A stretch of 64,000 nucleotides of DNA from Escherichia phage A6-6. A program made the translations under genes and the position numbers. Positions within the stretch are counted from its first letter, which is position 1. Each line of letters opens with the position of its first letter. Below the pieces are notes generated by a model. It did not search any database. It was not told the DNA's origin and was given only the letters and a program-made list of their open reading frames with translations. The stretch lies in sequence record PQ510734.1. One strand, written 5' to 3'. Positions 9,800-9,845 of the stretch are shown piece by piece.

Positions 9800-9845
9800 G
9801 TTTACAAGTTGGCAAGGTTATGGTATAGTAATCTTGTCAACTGCC
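9800..9845 (+). promoter_or_regulatory. early promoter with inverted repeat flanking the -10
   Basis: gtttac 9800-9805, tatagt 9824-9829, flanked by acaag...cttgt; near-identical core at 45310. Confidence 0.5.

Follow-up and report, generated by a model that had tools for sequence, protein, structure and literature searches.

Early-promoter stem-loop cassettes of a T4-like coliphage encode sense-strand RNA hairpins and probably insulate downstream genes

We analysed a 64,000-nucleotide (nt) stretch of Escherichia phage A6-6 (sequence record PQ510734.1; hereafter the window), in which an initial annotation had drawn attention to promoters whose −10 element sits inside an inverted repeat, among them those at 9800–9845 and 45310–45352. 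These sites are probably T4-type sigma-70 early-promoter cassettes of the kind described as PeSLs (promoter-early stem-loops), in which a hairpin present in read-through transcripts of the upstream gene insulates the gene downstream. The 5′ arm would lie in the spacer between the −35 and −10 elements, and the 3′ arm either just past the −10 or further down, over the Shine-Dalgarno (SD) sequence. Transcription from sigma-70 promoters starts about 7 nt after the −10; the promoter's own RNA would therefore begin within the hairpin, without its 5′ arm, leaving the complete hairpin solely in sense-strand read-through RNA. The stem would thus tell the two kinds of transcript apart and shield the downstream gene from upstream transcription. 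A transcript hairpin was among the possibilities raised in the initial annotation; the idea stands for read-through RNA and falls for the promoter's own RNA.

Early-promoter cassettes in the window

A 4-kb stretch around the 9800 site is 96–99% identical to many Tequatrovirus genomes, the best match being vB_EcoM_Ozark (98.9%); judged by sequence, the source is a Tequatrovirus, a T4-like coliphage. Coordinate mapping places the + strand of the window on the T4 minus strand at ~0.8–68 kb, the early-gene region running from e/ipIII through nrdC, 43, 41 and motB to rIIA. A consensus scan for GTTTAC-N18-TAnnnT (equivalent to TTTACx-N17), followed by an SD and an open reading frame (ORF), yielded 19 credible early promoters on the + strand. 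The sites singled out by the initial annotation match this T4 early (sigma-70-type) consensus and are, on that basis, predicted early promoters. Their description as promoters is borne out by −35/−10 signals annotated at two T4 orthologues, mobD.2 and ‘early promoter 57.9’, in record U76612, and by reverse-transcriptase stops that Durand et al. 2006 (PMC1702504) assigned to the T4 motB and mobD.5 promoters. Among the T4 records, promoter and terminator features are absent from NC_000866 and AF158101 and given only in U76612, which is older and partial.

Each cassette follows the order stop codon, AT-rich upstream region, GTTTAC −35, 18-nt spacer, TAnnnT −10, SD and ATG. The spacer holds the first arm of the repeat, and the second comes just past the −10. 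At 11 of the 19 promoters the stop codon of the upstream gene precedes the −35 by 0–6 nt or shares 1 nt with it, and the 25 nt upstream of the promoters average 75% A+T (65% in the window as a whole). An SD and an ATG come next, no more than 60 nt away. Cassettes are named here by their first position or by the gene that follows. By coordinate mapping, the cited sites fall in T4 intergenic regions, and their T4 counterparts are mobD.2 (9800), nrdC.10 (12829), nrdC.4 (17243), dmd (45310), motB (57634) and rIIA.1 (62362). The 58667 cassette precedes an 89-amino-acid (aa) ORF that is absent from T4. An Rfam search of the window found no family, group I introns included.

Two further perfect GTTTAC-N18-TATAAT matches, at 20929–20958 and 25764–25793, apparently fall within genes and are not directly followed by an SD or ATG; they may be internal early promoters or chance matches. 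A conserved CTATCAAC-like motif occurs at about +1 to +12 after many early-promoter −10 elements (for example 9036–9043, 12862–12869, 14296–14303 and 39629–39636) and also in T4 and RB69-like phages; it covers the expected transcription start and is often part of the 3′ arm.

Stems at the cited promoters

Direct reading of the sequence confirmed all the sites named in the initial annotation, with the corrections given below. The five cited hairpins have predicted fold energies of −15.2 to −19.4 kcal/mol, with z-scores, taken against dinucleotide shuffles, of −3.4 to −6.8 (Table 1). Perfect 9-bp arms surround the −10 at 45310 (ccgacaaga, 45319–45327, and tcttgtcgg, 45343–45351) and at 12829 (gataggact, 12840–12848, and agtcctatc, 12859–12867), and perfect 13-bp arms do so at 58667. 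The 9800 repeat is imperfect as DNA, with two G·T positions: two A-to-G changes relative to T4 each yield a G·U pair, and the T4 orthologue has perfect arms of 13 bp by direct reading, or 14 Watson-Crick pairs by stem scan. The minus strand at 9800 folds to only −7.6 kcal/mol. A −10 set in a perfect inverted repeat, as the initial annotation had it, is therefore found at 45310, 12829 and 58667 and not at 9800; in the predicted folds the stem often extends into the −10, so that the hexamer is partly paired and not simply in the loop.

The near-identity of the cores at 9800–9845 and 45310–45352 was correctly reported: these paralogous cassettes have in common GTTTACAAG and an identical 20-mer, tatggtatagtaatcttgtc. 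At motB the inner stem pairs gggacca with tggtcct through six Watson-Crick pairs and one G·T, its 3′ arm including the last T of TATAAT. The spacer hairpin said to be shared by two promoters, ccacaaggatgtgg, is likewise present at both nrdC.4 and rIIA.1, whose promoters have a nearly identical 32-nt core; its 3′ arm consists of the conserved TGTGG found just ahead of the −10. Outside the cited set, the 12560 promoter places its −10 inside the 3′ arm and has a homologous cassette in locus L011.

Table 1. Early-promoter cassettes with stems or spacer hairpins in the window. SD unpaired, predicted probability that the SD is unpaired in read-through RNA and in the promoter's own transcript; z, fold energy against dinucleotide shuffles.
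Cassette	Coordinates	Strand	−35	−10	SD	ATG	Stem or hairpin	Fold (kcal/mol)	z	SD unpaired (read-through; own)
mobD.2 cassette	9800–9860	+	9800–9805	TATAGT 9824–9829	aaggag 9846–9851	9858–9860	9807–9842, 15 pairs including G·U	−19	−6.4	0.44; 0.46
Gene 41/dmd intergenic cassette	45310–45371	+	45310–45315	TATAGT 45334–45339	45357–45362	45369–45371	45317–45352	−17	−6.1	
nrdC.10 cassette	12829–12888	+	GTATAC (variant) 12829–12834	TATAGT 12853–12858		12886–12888	12839–12868	−17.7	−6.8	
58667 cassette	58667–58742	+	ATATAC (−35-like) 58667–58672	TACTAT 58691–58696		58740–58742	58673–58685/58703–58715	−19.4	−6.1	0.17; 0.46
motB early promoter	57634–57710	+	57634–57639	TATAAT 57658–57663		57708–57710	inner 57648–57654/57663–57669; outer 57643–57646/57672–57675	−15.2	−3.4	
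nrdC.4 early promoter	17243–17272	+					small spacer hairpin ccaca-agga-tgtgg 17253–17266, weak		−1.2	
rIIA.1 early promoter	62362–62391	+					same spacer hairpin as nrdC.4, 62372–62385		−0.7	
Early promoter 12560	12560–12594	+		TACTAT 12584–12589			12568–12577/12585–12594		−3.1	
regB early promoter	4813–4872	+		4837–4842	region 4851–4861	4870–4872	4823–4833/4851–4861	−23.1	−4.8	0.00; 0.64
nrdC.8 early promoter	14261–14321	+		14285–14290	in 14301–14313	14319–14321	14273–14285/14301–14313	−19.4	−3.7	0.00; 0.43
modB early promoter	51326–51389	+		TATGAT 51350–51355			51346–51363/51371–51389	−19.1	−4.3	0.00; 0.73
motB.2 early promoter	56526–56585	+		56550–56555		56583–56585	56533–56550/56559–56575, 17 pairs	−23.7	−5.6	0.00; 0.81

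Frequency of the stems against chance

The repeats are non-random by four separate controls. In a fold scan of the 19 promoters, z fell below −3 at nine, with motB tenth at −2.6. In a swap control, the spacer of promoter i was combined with the downstream region of promoter j, which retains all common promoter motifs. Cognate combinations averaged −11.8 kcal/mol and non-cognate ones −7.4 (permutation p < 1e-5), and the cognate pair came top of its own row at eight of the 19 promoters, where about one is expected. The same test gave p ≤ 5e-5 for a non-redundant set of 55 promoters drawn from the window, T4, RB69 and IMG/VR relatives, and again p ≤ 5e-5 for 23 RB69-like promoters alone. A palindrome scan anchored on −10-like hexamers, which the initial annotation had proposed as a check, found perfect arms of at least 9 bp around the −10 of 3 of 18 promoters; of 480 other such hexamers, 5 had them (Fisher p = 0.002). 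Inverted repeats at these promoters thus exceed the frequency expected by chance.

A functionless, neutral by-product of cassette duplication or recombination in AT-rich DNA would suit the paralogy of the cassettes (73–93% identity over 30–115 nt) and the nine promoters that carry no significant stem. Such an origin is nevertheless highly unlikely, because the comparison of cognate with swapped arms controls for common motifs and composition and was replicated, z-scores reach −6.8, orthologous promoters show compensatory changes across genera, and the stems have the strong G·T bias described below.

Sense-strand RNA pairing

The arms themselves are unlike between promoters (ccgacaaga, gataggact, atcagtagttgat, gggacca), and arm length, loop size and register differ as well. 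Between related cassettes the changes are compensatory. The paralogous cassettes at 9800, in its T4 version, and at 45310 have outer pairs tt...aa and cc...gg, respectively; gataggact/agtcctatc at 12829 corresponds to gatagggta/taccctatc in RB69-like phages, a difference of three adjacent compensatory pairs; and compensatory differences across genera also occur at the regB, modB and motB.2 promoters. Covariation was tested in one fixed register, pairing spacer position i with position 15−i after the −10, over 57 non-redundant, unselected promoters. Two-sided changes were in modest excess, with 104 cells compared with 82.8 ± 8.0 in shuffles, a value reached by 2 of 500 shuffles, and the covariation score was 0.195 against 0.105–0.167 in slid controls. 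The pairing signal in this register is modest (43.0% of cells paired, against 41.1% in shuffles); different cassettes use different registers. An IMG/VR exact-pattern scan for the common 9800/45310 core with free arms returned two loci only, too few for covariation.

Two further results separate the strands. Among 26 non-redundant stems with at least seven Watson-Crick pairs, the internal transition-type positions comprised 20 G·T and one A·C, whereas the expected G·T share is ~0.55 (p = 2e-5). Folds of the + strand were also more stable than those of the minus strand (−14.7 and −10.2 kcal/mol, p = 3e-4). Together, the unshared arms, the covariation and the G·T and strand asymmetries point to a hairpin in sense-strand RNA, and they support selection acting on pairing and not on the sequence of the arms.

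These data bear directly on two other readings offered by the initial annotation, a dimeric regulator and a cruciform. As operators at which a regulator of phage or host origin shut down early promoters, the symmetric arms would bracket the −10 in the classic position for a repressor, and the shut-off of early promoters is incompletely understood (PMC3014915). We nonetheless consider operators extremely improbable. An operator class keeps a common dyad half-site across regulated promoters; here the arms are wholly different from promoter to promoter, with varying arm length, loop length and register, their pairs covary instead of being conserved, the G·T positions break the symmetry of the duplex, and half of the early promoters have no repeat at all. 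A cruciform, being symmetric, is disfavoured by the same G·T to A·C asymmetry, although a hairpin in single-stranded DNA of the sense strand may be compatible with it.

More generally, the repeats could act as DNA, as cruciforms or single-strand hairpins that are recombination hot spots (endonuclease VII substrates, for example) or targets of recombination proteins, and so drive cassette shuffling. Several breakpoints relative to T4 do fall within 10–40 nt of a −10, and the authors of the PeSL model speculated on a DNA-binding recombination protein and showed mini-circles between PeSLs (PMC2839356). Even so, a DNA-level role is unlikely: with 20 G·T to one A·C the opposite strand would carry C·A mismatches, which disfavours a two-armed cruciform; the arms have no sequence in common, hence no common protein site; T4 recombination needs only short homology, already given by the promoter, SD and conserved flanks; and 3′ arms directed at the SD, with compensatory changes, are left unexplained at the DNA level.

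Relation to known PeSLs

The cited cassettes fit the published PeSL architecture feature by feature and are in this respect already known, which the initial annotation did not recognise. Arbiol et al. 2010 (PMC2839356) defined PeSLs in phages phi1/RB49, with the stem mostly between −35 and −10 or overlapping the −10, and proposed the stem as a terminator or attenuator of upstream transcription and the cassettes as recombination linkers, including mini-circles. Like those elements, the cassettes here are intergenic and run from stop codon and AT-rich region through an early promoter with a stem-loop to SD and ATG. The sigma-70-type promoter with ~17-bp spacing is present as GTTTAC-N18-TAnnnT, and a stable stem-loop lies in or next to it, significantly so at all five cited sites. 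G-T pairs occur in the stems of both sets, and both are repeated many times in variable regions (19 cassettes in 64 kb here), mostly before small genes of unknown function and in association with insertions, deletions or replacements. Stems in phi1/RB49 are typically of the form G(n)-loop-C(n) with near-perfect TTGACA/TATAAT promoters, whereas those in the window are AT-rich and unique to each promoter, with GTTTAC as the −35.

The PeSL class was widened by Comeau et al. 2014 (PMC4122927) to take in the PST/T4 pair, with TTTACW-N17-TAYWAT promoters and AGNA-loop-TCNT stems. Repoila et al. 1994, as cited in PMC2839356, described analogous elements, T4 early promoters with weaker AT-rich stems, at the internal-protein loci of T-even phages. 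Both sets come from the same phage group as the window and share its promoter consensus and its weaker, variable AT-rich stems. The AGNA-loop-TCNT form fits tAGGA...TCCTa at 12829, and those cassettes too lie at gene-exchange boundaries. According to a figure legend in PMC4122927 the PST stems are just upstream of the promoter, which fits the UUCG terminators at 8976, 12511 and 49191 in the window; stems that span the −10 or reach the SD, as seen here, are not singled out in that paper. If our reading is right, nothing categorically new is involved: the cassettes are a re-detection, from sequence alone, of those that the Krisch group described as linkers through which T4-type phages shuffle genes in modular fashion. 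It would add that the T4 stems are under selection as sense-strand RNA structures, as the G·T bias and compensatory changes suggest, and not as protein sites.

At the internal-protein locus of T4 (AF158101, ~65,770–65,800, minus strand; locus L006) an early promoter has a perfect 14-bp inverted repeat around its −10, with arms tcctagaattgtga and tcacaattctagga, the 3′ arm ending in an SD-like AGGA. A related cassette of the window, at 1785, carries this repeat in shorter form.

Stems that reach the ribosome-binding site

From the predicted structures we infer how the stems may affect termination, translation and RNA stability, and two classes can be distinguished. In the first, comprising regB, nrdC.8, modB and motB.2, the 3′ arm is the SD or start codon, so that read-through RNA would be translated poorly and the promoter's own RNA well. 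That the 3′ arm is the ribosome-binding site at some promoters was overlooked in the initial annotation. At regB the spacer sequence cctcttgactg pairs with the SD region cagttaagagg, and at nrdC.8 a spacer arm pairs with a segment containing the SD (cggaggaac). At motB.2 an anti-SD sequence in the spacer, ttcctc, pairs with the SD gaggat. The modB promoter differs in that its unusual −10, TATGAT, is itself in the 5′ arm and pairs with the ATCATG start-codon region, while agcttc pairs with the SD ggaggc; in the model the −10 sequence is both promoter element and anti-start-codon arm, a combination also conserved in RB69. Structure in modB RNA was noted by Durand et al. 2006 (PMC1702504). At all four promoters the SD is predicted to be fully paired in read-through RNA and partly to largely released in the promoter's own transcript (Table 1).

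Both Tequatrovirus and Mosigvirus retain the arrangement, its pairs differing by compensatory changes. In RB69 the regB arms are ctcctctagttg/caactagaggag, and at modB the inner pairs are altered from agcttc/ggaggct to aggctt/gaggtct. The orthologous motB.2 promoters have three different inner stems: that of the window, ctcctcatg/catgaggag in loci L011–L016 and ctcctctggtt/aaccagaggag in RB69. Strong SD masking is predicted at these four of the 19 promoters; it is not predicted at 12829, 45310 or 57634, the SD at 9800 is unchanged, and masking at 58667 is partial.

A similar layout is known from the T4 hairpins at e, soc, 49 and I-TevI (PMC3014915), in which a promoter lies in or next to the 5′ arm and the SD or AUG in the 3′ arm; long upstream transcripts are masked and own-promoter transcripts open, as predicted here. 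Those hairpins embed late promoters (TATAAATA) and postpone expression until late in infection, whereas the promoters embedded here are early. Tentatively, then, the early-promoter spacer may double as an anti-SD arm in this subset, leaving only own-promoter RNA translatable and read-through (delayed-early or middle) RNA silent, which would limit synthesis of the RegB nuclease, the ModB ADP-ribosylase, MotB.2 and NrdC.8 to the first minutes of infection. It would be an early-gene mirror image of the late-only control at e, soc, 49 and I-TevI, and would explain a tight immediate-early restriction of toxic or dose-sensitive proteins. Anti-SD spacers would also hide GGAG in read-through RNA from RegB. 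Reviews describe regB as tightly controlled and RNA structure as protecting GGAG from RegB; in the reviews on regB and RegB and in Durand et al. 2006 (PMC1702504) we found no description of a promoter spacer as an anti-SD arm.

Tight stems and the question of termination

In the second class (mobD.2, dmd, nrdC.10, motB and 58667) a tight stem spans the −10 and the SD would stay free. These stems most likely attenuate read-through, or form or protect the 3′ end of the upstream mRNA. GGAG, the target of RegB, occurs ~3–15 nt downstream of most tight stems and, at motB, inside the outer stem.

A rival reading is that the stems are Rho-independent terminators or attenuators of upstream transcription, as Arbiol et al. 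2010 proposed, and have no role in translation or RNA stability. In that study, one PeSL stem-loop inserted ahead of lacZ reduced expression to about the same extent as did the rrnB T1 terminator (PMC2839356). The stems of the window resemble intrinsic terminators in being stable RNA hairpins located between genes, where the upstream one ends, and are found chiefly where the −35 directly adjoins the upstream stop codon, so that there is no room for a separate terminator (8 of 12 promoters, against 2 of 7 elsewhere, counts too small to carry weight). Three promoters with longer gaps, 9009, 12560 and 49227, have canonical terminators instead, with a GC-rich stem, UUCG tetraloop and T-run (+ strand, 8976–8993, 12511–12530 and 49191–49212), 15–30 nt upstream, and two of them, 9009 and 49227, have no strong −10-spanning stem.

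The cited stems differ from intrinsic terminators, in which a GC-rich hairpin is followed directly by a U-run, in having no U-tract, larger loops (6–17 nt) and lower GC; the sequences after their 3′ arms are gccaagg, aaatcaa, ttaaatg, acagaaa and ataaaat. On these features, and because they fail a terminator scan, we rejected the reading of the cited stems as canonical intrinsic terminators. The terminator-like activity was measured only for a stem of the GC-rich RB49 type, in a paper that does not discuss SD masking and in which the word ‘translation’ is absent, and a drop in lacZ expression is compatible with termination, SD masking or polarity alike. Extension of early transcripts is, moreover, known to give rise to delayed-early RNA in T4 (PMC2988021). 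Termination as the sole function is therefore doubtful for these stems, and because they have no terminator hallmarks, the PeSL model's label of ‘terminator’ merits direct testing in T4.

A number of observations also weigh against insulation of the downstream gene by the stems. No U-tract follows any cited stem and none was called on the + strand in the terminator scan; the modB hairpin alone passes a terminator-like scan, and the annotation of phage Ge15 marks only the canonical terminator equivalent to ~12511–12530, not the −10-spanning stems. Terminator activity of these AT-rich stems is unsupported by their sequence, the stem in the published reporter assay was of the GC-rich RB49 type (PMC2839356), and a literature search for T4 transcript-end maps found nothing specific to T4. 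About half of the early promoters, nine of 19, have no significant stem. For translation, SD accessibility in read-through RNA shows no difference from 55 control genes (p = 0.45), and enrichment of anti-SD sequences in spacers is borderline (7 of 55, against a background of 6.8%; p = 0.10); these two results rule out SD masking as a general explanation. Strand-biased mutation could contribute part of the G·T excess, and intrastrand template switching can make compensatory changes in palindromes without selection. Finally, roughly 17 of the 22 insertions and deletions relative to T4 lie away from the cassettes.

Gene shuffling at the cassettes

In addition to insulating the downstream gene, the conserved ~70–110-nt cassette would provide homology by which genes can be shuffled as modules. 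The match to T4 is interrupted at the cassettes at 12600/12876, 39665 and 58203–58948. The first is a 275-nt insertion relative to T4 (12600–12876) containing a 66-aa ORF, with its bounds 10 and 17 nt past the −10 elements of the 12560 and 12829 cassettes, respectively. Following the 39594 cassette, the gene is replaced relative to T4 (after 39665). Across 58203–58948 both flanking genes differ, and the ~112-nt cassette alone (58636–58747; T4 6659–6550) is common to the two phages.

At the location of the 12600–12876 insertion T4 has a single cassette, a third version with the spacer palindrome cataaagctttatg. Elsewhere, T4 segments of 0.6–1.9 kb are missing or replaced in the window at 22531–22534, 23810–23830, 28607–28632, 41420–42367, 47936–47957 and 61962–62027; on the T4 map these segments overlap the I-TevII portion of nrdD and the mobC, mobB, segA/beta-gt, dam and mobA/60.1 regions.

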